64,000 bases of DNA, from the NCBI GenBank assembly GCA_965113315.1, contig OZ220369.1; one strand, written 5' to 3'. Origin of the DNA: Podarcis vaucheri (Eukaryota). A program made the position numbers and the translations under genes. Shown in pieces: positions 36,267 through 59,422 of the stretch (positions within the stretch are counted from its first letter, which is position 1; every line of letters starts with the position of its first letter). The notes below the pieces were generated by a model. That model did not search any database and had not been told where the DNA came from. It saw only the letters and a list, made by a program, of their open reading frames with translations.

Positions 36267-36975
36267 TGAGAATTCATGGTGGAAGGACCACCACCTCCAA
36301 ACCACTTGACGGACTTGGGATGGCCAGGGTTGAAGGCAGGGTGGGAGTAGCTGGAGGATACATAAGTACAGCAGCTCCAGGAATGGCAAATTCCCCCCCC
36401 CCCTTCTTGAGGGCATGCCAGGGGAATTAGAGGGCCTTGGGTCCTGTAAATTTAAAGGAAAACAGGGAGCTGCCTTATATCTACTGCTCTATCTACTATT
36501 CTAAGGTGGTCCAGAAGCTGCTGCTAGTGCATAATGCAGTGGCTGGGTTGGTGAGTGCAGCATCTTGATGGGACCATGTGTAACCAGTCCTACAAGTGCT
36601 GCACTGACTGTCAGTGAGCCACTAGGTCCACGCCAAGGTGTGAGTTTTAGCTTGCAGAGCTGTAAATGGCTCGGGAGCCCACAACCTAAGAGAACCCCAG
36701 TTATCAATCAACTCAGGTCTTTCAATTGGCAGGAGATGCCCTATTGGTGTTGCCTGGATGGTCCTGACTCATGACAAGGCCTTCTTGGTAGTGGCTCCCT
36801 GTTTGCCCTCCCTGGTGAGGTGTGCTGCCTGCCTCCTTCATTATTAACATTCAGGTGGAATTTAAAGACATTGGTGTGTCCCCAGGCATTGGGTGGCTTT
36901 CACAAACTGTTGCAGGCAGCCTTTAAATGATTGATCTGTGAAGATATTTGGTCGCTTTTAAAATGTTGTTTATTG

Positions 36976-37812
36976 CAGTGTTTCCCAACCGGTGTTCCGC
37001 GGCACACTAGTGTGCCGCGAGATGTTGCCTGGTGTGCCGTGGGAGGGAGGCGGGCGAGGCGGGCGGCGAGAGGCGGGGCGGCGGCGGCGAGGAGAGGCCG
37101 CCCAGTGCGGGGCTCTCGCAGTCTGCCTGCCTGGCTGCCTGCGTGGCGCTGACGTCACGGGGCTGTAACGTGCCCCACATAGGCACACGCGGGGCGGCAA
37201 GCGAGCTCCCTCCCACATCCCATCGCCCCTCGCTACGGCCGGCCTACTGGGCTGTCGCAGGCGGAAGGCCTGCGCATGCGCGAGGTTTTTGCGCCTTCGG
37301 GATTCCCTTCACGCCTTCCTCCTCCCGGGTCCTTGAGAGCGCGGGAAGCGGCAGCGCGAGACCGCCGTTGAGCCTGGTAGGTATTGTGCTTGCCAAGGCA
37401 GTCATTTGGGAAATGAAAACTTGCAAAGCAAGCAACCAGTTCAATCTGAAGTACGTGTATGCTTAATATCCTGTATCTGAAACCTGTTCTGCCCCCTCCC
37501 CCACACTTGGTGCCATTTTCATCTACACATGCAGCAGAGTAAGTTGACCCAGAATAGTACCAATTCAGATGGCAGATGGGAGAATGACAGTGCTGAATGC
37601 TTTCCCATGTAGAACAGTCCCTGCAAATAAAAACCTAGCATATTTGGAAGAGGGATGCTAGCCTAACCATTACCTTCTATGCTGTTACTATTTTTTTATT
37701 TTTTTTTTACATAAGTAAAAAGTGACCTTTCCCCATCTGGCATGGTGGTGTGCCTCGAGATTTTTTTCATGAAACAAGTGTGCCTTTGCTCAAAAAAGGT
37801 TGGGAAACACTG
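36976..37812 (-). mobile_element. Cargo-carrying non-autonomous hAT element, copy B (837 bp)
   Basis: 15-bp TIR CAGTGTTTCCCAACC / GGTTGGGAAACACTG; perfect 8-bp TSD GTTTATTG (36968-36975, 37813-37820). Ends shared with 49063-50431 in opposite orientation; interior unrelated and CpG-rich. Confidence 0.93.
37146..37385 (+). promoter_or_regulatory. CpG-island promoter-like cargo within hAT copy B
   Basis: CRE TGACGTCA (37150-37157), ETS-like GGCGGAAG (37260-37267), NRF1-like TGCGCATGCGC (37271-37281), then a pyrimidine-rich leader and donor-like CTG|GTAGGT at 37377. Confidence 0.55.
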
Positions 37813-37870
37813 GTTTATTGGTTTGTTGTTTGACTGTTTGCTCCCCCAGGATCCACCCAAGGAACTAGCC

Positions 37871-38006
37871 CAGGCTTCCTCAACCTCGGCCCTCCACATG
37901 TTTTGAGACTACAATTCCCATCATCCCTGACCACTGGTCCTGCTAGCTAGGGATCATGGGAGTTGTAGGCCAAAAACATCTGGAGGGCCGAGGTTGAGGA
38001 AGCCTG
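37871..38006. mobile_element. 136-bp palindromic hAT MITE
   Basis: TIR CAGGCTTCCTCAACCTCGGCCCTCCA / TGGAGGGCCGAGGTTGAGGAAGCCTG; perfect 8-bp TSD AACTAGCC (37863-37870, 38007-38014). Confidence 0.93.
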
Positions 38007-39724
38007 AACTAGCCTATCATAGAAAGGCACCATTTATGTTCAGTGCTCTAACCACTTTCGCCTCCGTCTCTGCCCACTAGTGCCCTTTAGCCTCCCCAAA
38101 AATTACCAAGGAGGGAGCTTGGTTTTCATGCTAAACAATGTTCCCTCACCCATGGTTTATAGTGGAAACATCCATTATGTTTCACTGAACAGCTTCATGT
38201 GTTTTGTCACCATCATCATCATTATTAAAATAATTTATATACCACCTTCTATTTCAAGAAGAAATACCTTTTATGTAATGGAAAAGCAAGAGTACCACTA
38301 CATCCATTTCTTGTGTAGCAAAGACCTGCTGTGTTGCAGTTGCTGTCTTCACACTGTGAATAATTTGACTCTGCTGCTCATTATGTATTGCTTTTAAAGG
38401 TATTATTATGTGTTATTATGTGTTTATTAAATTGAATTGCATTTATAGAACTTTTAATTTTCAGCATTTTTATGGATATTACAGTATGTGTGTTCATTCT
38501 GTGGTTTATTACAGTACTATGTTGTAAGCCACCCTGTTGTCTTTTGACAAAGGACAGCCAATAAATTTCTCATAAATAAATGACCATTTGTGCCCACAGG
38601 TTTCATGCTCCAGTACAGACTTGGGTTTGAAGCATAGTTGTTTTCTGTATGCAATGCCCCTAAACTGTTTCCTGGATTGGAGCTTTGCTTGTCTTAGAAA
38701 AATCTCCATGCATGATCCAATAGAATTTTAAAGGGCTTACGAATGAGGAACGCTGGCCAGGTGTAAAAATAGAGGTTCTTCCACTTCTATTGCATGATCT
38801 GCGTGGTGCCTGGTTTTCTTCCATCTGTGCACGTTTCAGACGGTGTAATTAAAGCCACACGCTGACAAAACTGGTGCCCGGATTATGTTTGGGTCAAAGG
38901 AACCTGTGAACGGCTTGGGAAATCTTTGAAGCGGGCCAGGCTGTGAGGTGAAACAAAAGGGATGGATTGTGTTAACTTCAAAAGAAAATAAGGAATTCAG
39001 GAGCACAGGCCATCTTTGGCTGTCTGGCTACACGACAGTGCGTGGATTTTTCCGCTCTAGACTGGTGGATGCCTTTCGTTATTCTCCTTTTGTTTACCCC
39101 TAGAGCTTACGCACAGGTACAGTACAATGATCTCCCGCCAGGAGGTATGATAGATTCATCTCTTTTCTCCTCTCTCTTATCACCTTGTTATTACCTTTGA
39201 CCTCTGGGTAAATTGGATTTGGGTTTAAATTGCACAGATGCTGCGTCTCCATATTTATTCCGAAAAGGCAAAGAGTTCAGAACCTTGATACTTGGCACAC
39301 GGTGTAGAATGGACTCTTGGAAAATATGTGCAACTCACTCTTCACTATTTGCATTTATAGATTTCCCCCTAACCCCACTTCAAGCTAAAATGAATTGGGA
39401 AGAGGACATTCACAGGCAAATTCACTCAACTTCAGTACTCTTGTAAAAGCATCACATCCATATTTTCATCTGACCGTTTTGACACAGAATTTTCTATTCT
39501 TTTGGATTTAACTACCTGATCTCCCCAGCTCCTCCCCCATAGACTTCATGACATCACAGTAACTCAAAGGGGGCTTATAGATGGATAGCAGACAGTCAGC
39601 TGAATTCTTGCAATGCTGCTGTTGTCATTATCAAAACTCATCTCACACAGCATCGTTCCTGGTGGCTGCCAGGAAAGAAAAATTGTGGCCACCAGTGAGT
39701 AGCCAGAAGAAGAAACTCTGGTTT

Positions 39725-47838: not shown

Positions 47839-49848
47839 CACTGTATTGTGGATTTCACATACGCCCCATCAGCACTTTACATTCAAAGCAGTATCACGCC
47901 ACTTTAAACGGCCATGGCTTCCCCTGAAGGATTGTGTCAATCTGAAGTTTGTTACACACTCCTCTACCTAGGCAAGCAAAAGGCAGTATCAGACAGCAAG
48001 GACATATTCCAGCCAGGCATAAACACCCAAGGAGGGCACAAAGCACTGCTGATGAGAGGTGTGTCTAGGGAGGGTGTGTGGCCTTGCACTCATCACCGCT
48101 CATCCCAACCAAGGTTTGCATCTCATCAAAAATGCTTGGTGCTTTTCTTCAAAGAACCTCCCATTTGCAGAGAGTAAATTGGGAGCATCCAAAATGGAAT
48201 TGCTGGTAGTTGAATGAATGGAACACCAACCACCACAAAAGAAAGAGGGGAGGGGGAACCCGGGAGAGTGTGTAGGAAAAGTAGACAAATCAGGAGAAAT
48301 AATGTCAACAAACTCCTGCAGATACGCGAGGAAATCCAAAATCCAGCAGTGCAAGCAGATGGCTGTAAAAGCTGTGCGATGAAACAGATTACTGGGGGCT
48401 CACCCAAACAGAGAGCTCGCAAATGAAAACAAGGCCCTTTTTTTTTACCATGTTGGAGAACAGGATGTAAGAAAGCTGTTCGGATATTAAGCAGAGAGAG
48501 TTAAACGAGGGGAGATGTGCAAGGATTTTAGAAATCCGCAAGGCTCAATTGTCAGACTCCTGACTGAAATCTCAGCCTGTTCATATCCACAAAGCAAAGC
48601 CTCCTTTGCTTCCTCCAGGGCTCTCATAACTTCTGAGAAAAACCTGCTCTGAGTGCTCCTGTTGTCTGAAGGATGGTAGGCTTGCCTCACCGTTGATCTA
48701 TACAAATGATTTACCCACAAAAACCCATGTGTTTCAGTGGATAGACTTGGCATCCGCTGTGAATTACTATGCAGGATTCAAACACAAGCACTCTCCCCTC
48801 CTGTGGTTTCCAGCAACTGGTATTCAGAAGCATTTACTGCCTCCAGCTGTGGCAGCAGAGCAGTCATCATAGAGAGTAGCCATTGATAGCCCTCTCCTCC
48901 ATGAATTTGTCTAATCCTCCTTTAAAGCCATCCAAGTTGTTGGCCATCAATGCCTCCTGTGGAAGGGAGTTCCATAGTCTAACCATGCACAAAGAAATCC
49001 TTTCCCTCCCCCTCCCCTCTGTCCCAAATCTTCCAACATTCAGCTTCATGGGATGTCTAGTGCAGTGTTTCCCAACCTTTTTTGGGCAAAGGCACACTTG
49101 TTTCATGAAAAAAATCTCGAGGCACACCACCATTACAGCCCCGTGACGTCAGCGCGCAGCGTCACGCCGGGAGGGACATGAATTGCTAGCAAATTACATA
49201 ATCACCTCCTTGAGGGCTGGCTCATCTTCTCCGAAGGCAGAACCCCATTAATTAACAGCACAGACTCACACCATAGCCAAGACGAGGGGGGAAAACCTCA
49301 GTCATGCACAGTCATGCACATGTGGGGGCTAAATGAGGATGAAGACCGGGCAGAGATCAGGGTTCAAATCACCCCACCTGGCCAGGACAATCCCTGGGTG
49401 CTCCCTTGGGCCACTCGCCTGACCCACCTCGCAGGGCTGTTGTTGCGAGGATAACACGGGGAGAACCACGCGCGCCCCCGGGAGCTCCTTGGAGGAGAAA
49501 GCGGGCGATGAATGCAATGCACGAAATATATGAGAGGCGACCAGGTTTTGCAGGTGAGGGGCCCCCGCCAGCCTCCACTTCCAACACCCGGCGCAACGAC
49601 GCCGAAGTTTTCCCCCGGGCTCGGCTCGGGGAGCAGCGCTGCTCCCCCCCTGGCTCCCCTTCGCCCTCCCGGCTCTCTCTGCCGCCCACTGGGGACCCCC
49701 CTCACCTGCCAAGTCCGGAGCGCCGGTGGAAGTTGCATGCATGCATGGCCTTGCACGCCCGCCAAGGGGTCTCCCCACGGTCCGATGCGTCCCCTCCGGC
49801 GCGGATGCAGCATTGCAAAAATAACACACACACCCGACGCAGCCCTAC

Positions 49849-49905
49849 CTGGGGGGCAGCCTCCGCCTCCGCCGCTCCGCCTCCGCGGGGATCCCCGGGC
49901 TCCAT
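49849..49905 (-). pseudogene. Putative captured first coding exon (MEPGDPRGGGAAEAEAAPQ) inside hAT copy A
   Basis: Strong Kozak context GGCGGCAGG-ATG-G, 19 codons, then a phase-0 donor CAG|GTAGGG, with GC-rich leader and promoter-like sequence upstream. Parent gene not recognised. Confidence 0.55.
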
Positions 49906-50050
49906 CCTGCCGCCTGATCTCCGCGGGGGCGCAGGCAGGCTGCGCGGGGTCTGCGCGGAAGAGCCCCTGCCCGCCCGGCCGCCACCGCTGCGCTCATTCC
50001 ATGGCCGGGAGAAGAGCGCTTCAAACAAAACGCCCGGCCCGCCAGGCCAC

Positions 50051-50126
50051 GCTGGGAAACGTAGTTCGTGCACCCCGTGCAGGCGCGGAGCCCAAGGGCG
50101 AGGGGACTACGGATCCCGGCAGCCCC
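50051..50126. promoter_or_regulatory. Divergent pair of ZNF143/SBS-like (ACTAC-N-TCCC) motifs within the cargo
   Basis: GCTGGGAAACGTAGTTC (50051-50067, reverse) and GGACTACGGATCCCGGCAGCCCC (50104-50126). Confidence 0.5.
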
Positions 50127-53100
50127 CATGCCGGGGACGGAGGAGGAGAGGCCGGGTGCAGGGATGGAGGGACGGGTGGGCGAGCGAGCAAGTGGCAGCC
50201 GCCAAGCCTTGGCCGAGAGCCAGGAAGGGCCTCCCTGGAGGAGGAGGAGGAGGAGGGAGGCGCAGAGTGGGAGGGAGGGAGGGAACCCCAGGGGTCATCT
50301 AGTGACGGCGCCCCAATCGAAAATTTGACTTTAAAAAAAAATCTTTCGAATTTTTTAATTTTTCCCGCGGCACACCAGGCAACATCTCGCGGCACACTAG
50401 TGTGCCGTGGAACAGTGGTTGGGAAACACTGGTCTAGTGTTACAAGAGCGGGAGAAATACTTTCTCTATTCACATTGAGACAGAAGTCAGGGGAATGGTG
50501 TCAAGATACAGGCCGGGATGAACAATGTAAGCCAAGTGTGTATCAATAGCTAAACCAATACTTACACAGACGAATGAGATTTCTACAAATACCTGGCTGT
50601 TAGCTTGCATCGCAGGGGAAATTTGGAACCACTGACTGTCATGAAAATTGTCAAGTGGTGGGAAATATGTGTGCACTTCACACTTCTGGTTCGCTCCACC
50701 ACTAACCTTATCAGGGGCGCTTGCAAAGCAAGTCTCTGGAAAAGAAATTCTAAACAAATAGGCTAAAAGTTAGCAAATAGCAAAAGGAGTTCCCAACAAT
50801 CATCTGATATACAGAACGCCCCTCAAGCAATTTGCACTTGGCGGTTCAGCAGGGTGGAAAGGAAACATAACTGGGGGTTTGGAAGCTACAAAGCTGTAAA
50901 AGAAACTGGGAATTTGTGGAAAGGAATTCAGATCAGCGAAGAGTGGCTAAGAACGATAGGGTGACTTTGGAGCAGAAATAGCCTTTTAAGAGAGAACAAA
51001 TATGCTCATATATAATGTTTACATATTTAAATGGAGGTCTCAGCTACACGATGCATTTATCCTGATTTTGTGCCACTTTTAAGTCATGGTTTTCTCCCCC
51101 GCCCTGGCTCTACTGAATGCTGGAAACTGTAGTTTGCTGTGAGTGCTGGGGATTGTTTGAAGTCTGCTACCCATCTCAAAGAACTACAATTCCCAGGGTT
51201 CTTAGGGAAGAGGGATTGTTTGTTAAACCAGTCTGATTAAGATTAAATTAAATTTAAATTATTATTTAAAAATAGAAAATGCTTCACAGCATAATTTATA
51301 GACTGCTTTACAGCATACAGCCATCAAAGCAGTATACAAGAGAAAAACAGAGTATCCAGGAGTTGCAAGGACAAACTGGTTTGAGCAGGGGTTGAAGCCA
51401 TTTAAGAGAAACGCCATCACACAGACTTGTTTGTGAACGTCTCTGTTATCCAAATGATGGTGAGTGACTCTCCCCACCCAGACTGGTCACTGGATCCTGC
51501 TGGGCAGGAAGGAACGTGAGCACTTCCTGTTACAAGCTGAGCCTTCTTCAGGTACTTCCGAGGTTTGGGTGTGTTCCTGCAGGGATTTTGTAATAATGTT
51601 TGTGGAAAAGTGGAAATTTCAGGAGGGACTAGAATTAAGAAACGTGGCACCATGCAAATGTTGATGGAGGCAGTGGAGGCACAAAGAGCAGGAAGGGTAG
51701 AGGTGCTTGAAGAAGCAGAATACTCCCATATTGTGGAATTCCCTCCCAAGAGACGTTAGACTGGCTCCCTCTTTGCTATCCTTCCGCCATCAGGCTAAGA
51801 ACTTCCTAATCAGGCAGGTCCTATTCAGACAGCATGTGCTCAGAATAGCTTCAATAACCTGGCATTAATAAACCTGAGTTTTCTTACATCCTTTCAACAA
51901 TAAGTCTTACCAGGCTATTTATACCTGCACCCTGATGCAATATTTACCAAACTCCAACAAGACTGAGTTGGGTTTCAGGCAGAGTTCTCTCTCCCAATCC
52001 TTACCTGGAGATGCCAGGGATTGAACCTGGGACCTTCTGCATACAAAGCAGATGCTCTACCACTGAGCTAAGGGCCTTTCTGCTAAATAGTCCATCAAAG
52101 GCTCTGAAGGTAAGGACAAGGGTTTCCTTAAAGCAGGCAGGAAGCCACTGCATTGATAACTAGGAACACATACAATGAAAAGCAACTTCTAAGAGACTGA
52201 TATGCAAGGTCAGAGACAACCAAAGGGCTGTTGGGGTGGGGGGGATAATTAGCCCAGTTAAAAGAGAGATGGGGGGAATCACTGAAGTGAAACCAGCTAT
52301 GACTAAGGGCCATAAAGCAAACTGTGAGATGCAATGGTCTGATTATGCTTTTTTGACCTCTGTGGACCATCAAGACCAGAGCTGCCATTTACAATGTCAA
52401 GCAAACCGGGACGAACAAGCACAAATTTGCATAAGATATCCAATCGGCAATTTATCCATAGAAGTTGCTTACCCAGGGAGCAGTGTTGAGAGGGTCAGAT
52501 CTGCAGGCACTCATCAATATCTTCTTTTCGTTTCCTTTACAAAAGGAAAAAAGACCTCTCAGACCTACAAACAGCAGCCTAAGGCTGTGTGCACATTCGA
52601 AACACATTATTTCCCTCAAAGAATTCTGGGCACTGTAGTTTATCTCTCACAGGGTTACAATTCCCAGTATCCCTTAACAAACTACAATGCCCAGAATTCT
52701 TTGGGGGAAAGCTTGTGCTTTATAGTGTGTCTTTAGCCTCAGTTAGCTCCATCTCCTCCAAAACATGAAGCTGCTTGAGGCCAGTGTTGAGTCCTTGTTG
52801 CTTGGAGTCTACAGGAGAAGATGGTTCCACACAACTGGGAATTCCTATTCTCCTGTTACTTCAAATGACCCTCACCAATGAGCAAGTGAATCAATGGTAC
52901 AAGAAGAGTAGAGAATGTCAACTCTGGAAGCCACAAGAAGCCCAGCCAGCGGTCAGAAACAAATCCAAGTGTTACTTCAGGAAGGCATCTGAGTTAAGTT
53001 CAGGACAGAAGTCAAGAAGGCAGCGATGGAAGCCAAGGGAGACCTGTAAAAAAAGGCAGCTCAGGACTTACCACCACCCTGAGATAGGCAGATGAAAATT

Positions 53101-59120: not shown

Positions 59121-59222
59121 CAGTGTTTCCCAACCTTTTTTGGGCAAAGGCACACTTGTTTGATGAAAAAAATCTCGAGGCACACCACCATTACAGCCCC
59201 GTGACGTCAGCGCGCAGCGTCG
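59121..59222 (+). mobile_element. hAT cargo-family copy C, left end only (runs into gap)
   Basis: About 100 bp nearly identical to 49063-49163; preceded by CTCTAGAA. Confidence 0.88.
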
Positions 59223-59422
59223 NNNNNNNNNNNNNNNNNNNNNNNNNNNNNNNNNNNNNNNNNNNNNNNNNNNNNNNNNNNNNNNNNNNNNNNNNNNNNN
59301 NNNNNNNNNNNNNNNNNNNNNNNNNNNNNNNNNNNNNNNNNNNNNNNNNNNNNNNNNNNNNNNNNNNNNNNNNNNNNNNNNNNNNNNNNNNNNNNNNNNN
59401 NNNNNNNNNNNNNNNNNNNNNN
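59223..59422. other. Assembly gap (200 N)
   Basis: Run of N. Confidence 1.

Follow-up and report, generated by a model that had tools for sequence, protein, structure and literature searches.

A high-copy Buster-type hAT transposon of a lizard is built from four host loci, and its full-length parent likely uses a captured TFDP1-like promoter

Cargo uptake by lizard hATs, template switching in Pack-TIRs and promoter capture by Helitrons are all already in print (PMC3014272, PMC8277862 and PMC4224331, as far as the available text of each goes). The hobo_AC hATs of Anolis carolinensis take up extraneous genomic DNA in autonomous and non-autonomous copies alike (PMC3014272, Novick et al.). The family described here, of which a member that we call copy B is the main subject, resembles them in being a lizard hAT with cargo uptake, recombination between copies and continued mobility. 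The cargo of hobo_AC is bulk DNA with old transposable element fragments, and gene promoters, traced parents and cargo-driven transposase expression were not found in the available text of that paper; the copy B family also differs in being Buster-type, with a size range of 0.5–4.3 kb. The animal Pack-TIRs, for which the FoSTeST model was put forward, comprise four multicopy cases in 100 reference genomes, one example having three copies (PMC8277862, Tan et al. 2021, available text). They share with copy B the host fragments between TIRs and probably a course of template switching followed by transposition; their short microhomologies have a counterpart in junction overlaps of copy B that may be chance, and one frog hAT carries a 5′UTR piece (PMC8277862); the words lizard and anole are absent from the main text of that paper. 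Copy B likewise holds host DNA between its TIRs with parent loci elsewhere, and is multicopy with distinct TSDs. Its family differs from the Pack-TIRs, as far as these are described there, in copy number (at least 614 and 834 copies), in having four parents within 837 bp and in that autonomous copies capture too.

Bat Helitrons, for example HelibatN3 with the NUBPL promoter, have captured promoters and first exons and are present in thousands of copies (PMC4224331, Thomas et al. 2014, available text). Promoter and first-exon capture, sometimes sequential, and the higher copy numbers reached by 5′ gene pieces are points in common with copy B, whereas captured promoters driving the element's own enzyme are not reported in the available text of PMC4224331. 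Helitrons are rolling-circle elements, and copy B is set apart from them by its TIRs, its 8-bp TSDs and the hAT-type transposase of its family. The Pack-MULEs of rice belong to the plant Mutator superfamily, with long TIRs and TSDs of 9–10 bp, whereas copy B is a vertebrate hAT; they have a GC-rich 5′ bias and form chimeras of several loci. Like copy B they are non-autonomous TIR elements carrying gene fragments (as cited in the available text of PMC8277862 and PMC4224331). A literature search, mostly of papers outside subscription and largely at the level of titles, found neither a TIR transposon with its transposase driven by promoter DNA taken from the host nor, in the same scope, an autonomous TIR element that owes both its promoter exon and its splice sites to captured host sequence.

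The DNA analysed here, referred to as the window, is a stretch of 64,000 nucleotides from Podarcis vaucheri, and its repeats, too, point to a squamate. Copy B occupies positions 36976–37812 and is an 837-bp cut-and-paste transposon that ends in 14-bp TIRs and is flanked by an 8-bp TSD. hAT elements have short TIRs of 10–25 bp and 8-bp TSDs, and their groups differ in target choice (PMC3942097, available text). Both features of copy B fall within these bounds. It is non-autonomous, present in many copies and filled with cargo, and appears to derive from a Buster-type hAT. Buster elements prefer TA-centred target sites, and TSDs with TA at positions 4–5 were found in 153 of the 160 distinct full elements fetched. 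Our main reading, with a probability of about 0.78, is that copy B was built from four host loci and that its parent likely uses a captured TFDP1-like promoter to transcribe its transposase. The structure with its four source loci is firmly established, whereas the view that the parent relies on the captured promoter is tentative, and we would put it a little short of even odds. The features are collected in Table 1, where, as in the text, G000 is the genome searched, C numbers are contigs, L numbers are fetched loci and X21–X24 are RNA runs. At a distance of 50 bp from the end of copy B there is a MITE-like palindrome of 148 bp (window 37865–38012).

Table 1. Features of copy B and of the related copies A and C, in window positions
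Feature	Position	Strand	Remark
TSD left copy, 8 bp	36968..36975	.	same letters as 37813-37820
Native hAT 5′ end, TIR and subterminal repeats	36976..37044	+ (= transposase sense)	matches 5′ ends of autonomous copies and older relative
GC-rich linker, 18 bp, without assigned source	37045..37062	.	between native end and inverted piece
Inverted copy of host DNA adjoining the C25 piece (G000:C25, ~4,418,615-4,418,650)	37063..37094	+	junction alignment
Host CpG-island capture, 53 bp (G000:C25:4,418,561-4,418,613)	37091..37143	-	L188 without TIR at match
DP-family gene promoter capture, likely TFDP1 (G000:C18:81,751,474-81,751,696)	37146..37374	-, = host gene sense	8 mismatches/222
CRE; ETS-like motif; NRF1 palindrome	37150; 37261; 37272		inside captured C18 promoter piece
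Last 32 bp of 1.1-kb captured flank (G000:C19:44,904,849-44,904,880)	37374..37405	-	sequence match
Splice donor; exon end at 37376	37377..37382	+	RNA loose ends at 37376/37377
AT-rich host capture (G000:C10:110,497,168-110,497,573), 55-bp and smaller deletions	37403..37744	-	4 mismatches/342
Native hAT 3′ end; 3-bp CAT microhomology with cargo	37742..37812	+	longer precursors L073/L075
TSD right copy, 8 bp	37813..37820	.	equals left copy
Copy A, high-copy derivative	49063..50431	-	native 3′ end and host CRE joined at TTA 49133-49135, then ~1.2 kb other GC-rich cargo
Copy C, junction as in copy A	59121..59223	-	stops at assembly gap 59224-59422

The interior of copy B traces to four host loci on four contigs, none of which has a transposon end at the matching place. 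These parents were found with patterns that excluded the element's next base, which leads to loci without TIRs. At the C18 source (81.7515 Mb) the CRE piece and the ETS/NRF1 stretch form one unbroken run of 223 bp, and no TIR was found in 60 kb there. The C10 source (110.497 Mb) retains 55 bp that are also kept in L073 and L088 and are lost in copy B, and the C25 source (4.4186 Mb) has a GC content of 0.75 and a CpG o/e of 0.83. The captured C25 piece is likely the first exon of a host gene; 104 frames scanned there, of 125 listed, gave no Pfam hit. No family element is present at the C19 and C10 source sites in this assembly. The original prediction, which foresaw at least two independent captures, was surpassed by the four parents traced, and separate searches with the parts of the interior did lead to different parental loci; its suspicion that the CRE piece is a relic of earlier cargo agrees with the C18 origin of that piece. 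Two candidate parents were rejected: L077, considered for the AT-rich part, is a copy B derivative with additional cargo, and C10:115.54 Mb, considered for the GC-rich part, is a further family member. Only 6 kb from the C10 parent, and in the same orientation, lies an older relative of 1,032 bp that still holds a transposase relic (G000:C10:110,490,145-110,491,176); this proximity may be chance.

The C18 island lies 20 kb upstream of the exons of a DP-family gene, on the same strand, and a Na/H-exchanger exon lies on its other side; the first coding exon of the gene we take to match the N terminus of TFDP1. In human, TMCO3, a probable Na/H antiporter, adjoins TFDP1 (PMC3722009, available text). 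Since the neighbours match the human TMCO3–TFDP1 order we call the gene TFDP1-like, and the captured promoter likely belongs to this DP-family gene, TFDP1. Copies differ from their host source by 3.0% at C18, by 1.3% at C10 and by 1.0% over the 1.1 kb taken from C19, values that would be consistent with C18 having been captured first, though C18 is CpG-rich.

Copies of the B type number at least 614 in the genome, this being the count of exact matches to the end junction of copy B (control 0). Its 574-bp stretch gave 921 first-look candidates, and all 40 that were scored were full length at 98–100%. Both ends and an 8-bp TSD were present in 29 of 30 fetched copies, in 29 different flanks, and the mean divergence from the majority was 0.73%, a value biased low because the fetched copies were the best-scoring ones.

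A search with the transposase relic gave 84 matches, of which eight have open frames of 642–680 aa; seven of these loci resolve as elements of 3,981–4,281 bp with TSDs, the exception being L217. The 430 bp that open copy B (36976–37405) are the 5′ end of full-length copies with a 674-aa open transposase frame, unbroken in L216, and copy B as a whole is this start of the full-length layout followed by C10 DNA and the native 3′ end. Read in transposase sense, L216 and L219 consist of the native 5′ end, the C25 piece, the C18 promoter piece (reversed with respect to its host gene), the 1.1-kb stretch from C19, a remnant of the 5′ TIR 35 bp long, the 218 bp of C18 that adjoin the promoter piece in the host, native sequence and the transposase. 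The second C18 piece carries a splice acceptor. The acceptor piece, the internal TIR and the start of C19 are found in all seven resolved full-length copies and the donor in two, and in these donor-bearing copies everything from the promoter through first exon, donor and intron to the acceptor is of captured origin. The two autonomous copies with a donor have it in the GC form, while 40 of 42 B-type copies have GT, two forms that cannot be told apart in spliced reads. The remaining autonomous copies include a second subtype (L218, L220–L223) with other cargo and without the donor, whose alleles fit the expressed transposase at 23–24 of 24 sites, these having been picked as differences from L216.

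The best matches of the transposase, at 0.97–0.99, are the ZBED5/FAM200/GTF2IRD2 clusters of a protein atlas. Pfam gave a Spin-doc zinc finger alone, below cut-off, and a sequence search of the PDB was without a hit; candidate catalytic motifs of the DDE core were picked out by eye. Among ten short relatives found via the transposase relic and with both ends resolved, none matches the C18 promoter, and the one displayed has another native upstream region.

RNA was drawn from 6–12% of four raw-read runs and from one contig set, of other individuals that bear the same species label as the best-matching genomes and may not be the same species; X21 and X22 are single-cell RNA runs of one study, and X23 and X24 are bulk runs. 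Over the transposase frame the sense strand reaches a depth of 23–87, versus 0–3, in two stranded runs, with 2–6 beyond the captured acceptor. In X21 the donor exon is joined to the transposase acceptor in 15 reads with ten different starts, one of which has 58 bases on its shorter side and runs past the host piece into native sequence. The donor-like site that the original prediction pointed out at 37377 is in use, as reads aligned to copy B leave at 37376 into the acceptor exon (18 in X21, 15 in X22). No transcription start sites were called in the RNA runs, and the unique flanks of copy B drew no reads, so transcription of copy B itself is unsupported by these runs.

From these data the full-length parent likely runs partly on the hijacked host promoter. 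It is possible, if on balance doubtful, that the captures are real but neutral filler, that transposase RNA comes mainly from copies lying inside host genes and that the captured exon is a minor by-product. The commonest exon upstream of the transposase acceptor is indeed a host exon (C26:27.55 Mb), with 20 reads in X23, 43 in X24 and 79 in X21, the last against 15 for the captured exon, so that more of the transposase RNA sampled here would come from read-through. Among the best-supported joins listed, the donor joint occurs in X21 and X22 only, the bulk runs listing the host join alone. The donor is also absent from five of the seven full-length copies, and cargo of CpG-island type may mirror chromatin that was open at capture rather than selection. 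Against this reading, the captured acceptor stands in place of the native upstream region in seven of seven intact copies, depth in X21 and X22 climbs over 37268–37375 and falls at the donor, and the GT form of the donor prevails among the B-type copies. The C26 exon is duplicated (G000:C26:27,548,792 and 27,551,100), and by hand translation its join is out of frame with the transposase.

Chimeric reads also run the other way. In X21 the first exon of the element is spliced to a coding exon of the host at G000:C34:16,984,521 (L230), which has a canonical acceptor and a zinc-finger-like frame, in 11–17 reads, the alignment to copy B giving 11 that leave at 37376. No family copy was found in 120 kb around this exon, 90 kb of it upstream, nor in 70 kb around the C26 exon, so within those ranges the source copies of the chimeric reads are not in the assembly; the C34 reads possibly stem from an insertion absent from it.

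As to how copy B arose, its junctions offer several clues. The native end and C10 overlap by 3 bp, C10 and C19 by 3 bp and C19 and C18 by 1 bp; two extra bases lie between C18 and C25, and a local inversion lies at the C25 junction (37063–37094). Overlaps of 1–3 bp, which may be chance, and a local inversion are what the template switching proposed by the original prediction would be expected to leave. The join of both C18 promoter pieces as in the host occurs once in the genome, at C18, and no element with the two uninterrupted was found in the genome; as none survives, the early ancestor is a reconstruction. Parts of the C18 island abut or overlap in host order in three lineages. Early on, the native upstream region would have been replaced in one capture by 769 bp or more from the C18 island. 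Template switches during repair or replication would have followed, and on two occasions, at C19 and at C10, synthesis would have run beyond the 5′ end of an inserted copy and on into the flanking DNA. Microhomology deletions would have given rise to the B and A/C lineages, and each product would have been amplified by the transposase. The C19 piece, and in L220 the C10 piece, begin directly after an internal TIR remnant with an 8-mer having TA at positions 4–5, in line with the target preference of the family; the simplest reading would be that copying ran beyond the 5′ end of an element at that site, took in flanking DNA and then switched back. Such relics of TIR plus flank would imply that element and parent were adjacent, at C19 and C10 only.

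An internal TIR remnant, a target-like 8-mer and host flank are also what composite transposition would leave, in which a pair of nearby copies would have transposed as one unit along with the intervening DNA and no template switching. We consider this unlikely, as the two host pieces on the borders of the TIR and C19 block are exact neighbours in the genome without a base missing, neither flank of the C19 stretch holds an element in this assembly, and several junctions have inversions or fold-backs. The exact C18 abutment, the inversion and the fold-backs in other copies would rather favour template switching. Several subfamilies (L032, L090, L111 and L166) have fold-back or inverted duplications beside the 5′ end, some with a second partial end.

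Far less probable still is the reverse direction, in which the C18 island would be a domesticated remnant of the transposon's own promoter: the 60 kb examined at C18 hold no TIR, the island marks the start of a DP-family gene whose neighbour is of the Na/H-exchanger type, as in human, the short relatives have another upstream region and no island, and the host holds in one run the pieces of which the elements have broken subsets.

Copy B came to attention through a string at the left end of copies A and C that is split in it, and this holds: the CRE piece lies at 37146–37168 and the end resumes at 37742/37743, 574 bp apart with one base in common. The absence of a TSD and of poly(A) at the borders of the 574 bp was likewise borne out, and the ETS and NRF1 motifs and the donor-like GT were located (Table 1). 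The donor is not derived from the gene of the captured promoter and lies in the 32 bp that come from a different locus, C19. What does not hold is that a second cargo landed in a conserved end module, because in the host the CRE and the ETS/NRF1 stretch belong to one unbroken sequence. In the autonomous copies and the older 1,032-bp relative, the native end runs on into the transposase 3′ region and not into the CRE, so that the seemingly intact A/C string is itself a join of the native end to host CRE DNA. The A/C and B lineages overlap in the 23-bp CRE piece alone, which is why the string looks split. Longer forms (L073, L075) gave rise to the end junction of copy B through a deletion at the common CAT. 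That one 574-bp host fragment was inserted into a module kept by A and C is thus scarcely credible: the halves of the A/C string do flank the 574 bp with a shared base, but the CRE piece is unbroken with the promoter part at C18, the 574 bp are three pieces from three contigs, the native end continues otherwise in autonomous and older copies, and longer precursors of the junction exist. The opposite possibility, that A and C derive by deletion from one contiguous ancestor, stands in part, as 36976–37405 is contiguous in the autonomous parent and A and C look like a deletion product.

The A/C junction has 834 exact matches in the genome (control 0), and copy A's family has 1,163 genome candidates. 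In copy A the 45 bp that come next after the join of native end and CRE are again of C18 origin, and four other loci (L192–L195) have 355 bp of C18 from the CRE onward, followed by the C25 piece. That a Harbinger-type element had inserted here and duplicated TTA was rejected as an explanation, the TTA being common to the native end and the host. The 1.2-kb GC-rich cargo of the window's copy A (49176–50340) is without ~47 bp that are found in most copies. Copy C comprises 103 bp only before the run of N, and since its final bases match subtype L032/L090, not copy A, it is probably a different derivative.

Capture in this family reaches beyond copy B. C18 DNA was present in 135 of the 160 full elements, C25 DNA in 126, C10 DNA in 62 and C19 DNA in 58, shares that are not genome-wide because the sample was drawn with GC-rich patterns. 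Twelve further multi-copy cargo clusters were found, nine of which are CpG-island-like, versus 4 of 275 flank windows. One cluster, a SIX-domain exon, is placed inside the cargo of copy B and represents a later round of serial capture. Six B derivatives have their cargo interrupted by a SIX1_SD-domain first exon: L077 (G000:C26:10,776,245-10,782,860), L134, L138, L141, L148 and L149, the latter five being full copies with TSDs. We take this exon to be SIX4/5-like. In L077 a ~5-kb LTR element lies at the end junction.

Multicopy Pack-type capture by cut-and-paste transposons is reported to be rare in animals, with four cases in the available text of PMC8277862, and here there are hundreds of copies. 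Nearly all steps have left surviving intermediates, so that the junctions show how capture proceeded, and as the family is young, with open reading frames, promoter hijacking is directly testable. A captured promoter exon spliced onto the transposase suggests how capture could pay for the element. Copy B has promoter, exon and donor without an acceptor, and so would act as a mobile first-exon cassette. It is conceivable, though less than an even bet, that an active vertebrate hAT swapped its upstream region for the reversed promoter of a cell-cycle gene, with first exon, intron and acceptor from three captures, that its autonomous expression depends on this, and that through its B derivative over 600 cassettes of promoter and donor were dispersed, which supply host genes with new first exons by splicing. 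B-type copies, with promoter and donor and no acceptor, would be a ready source of such exons, and one splice into a host coding exon is seen in RNA.
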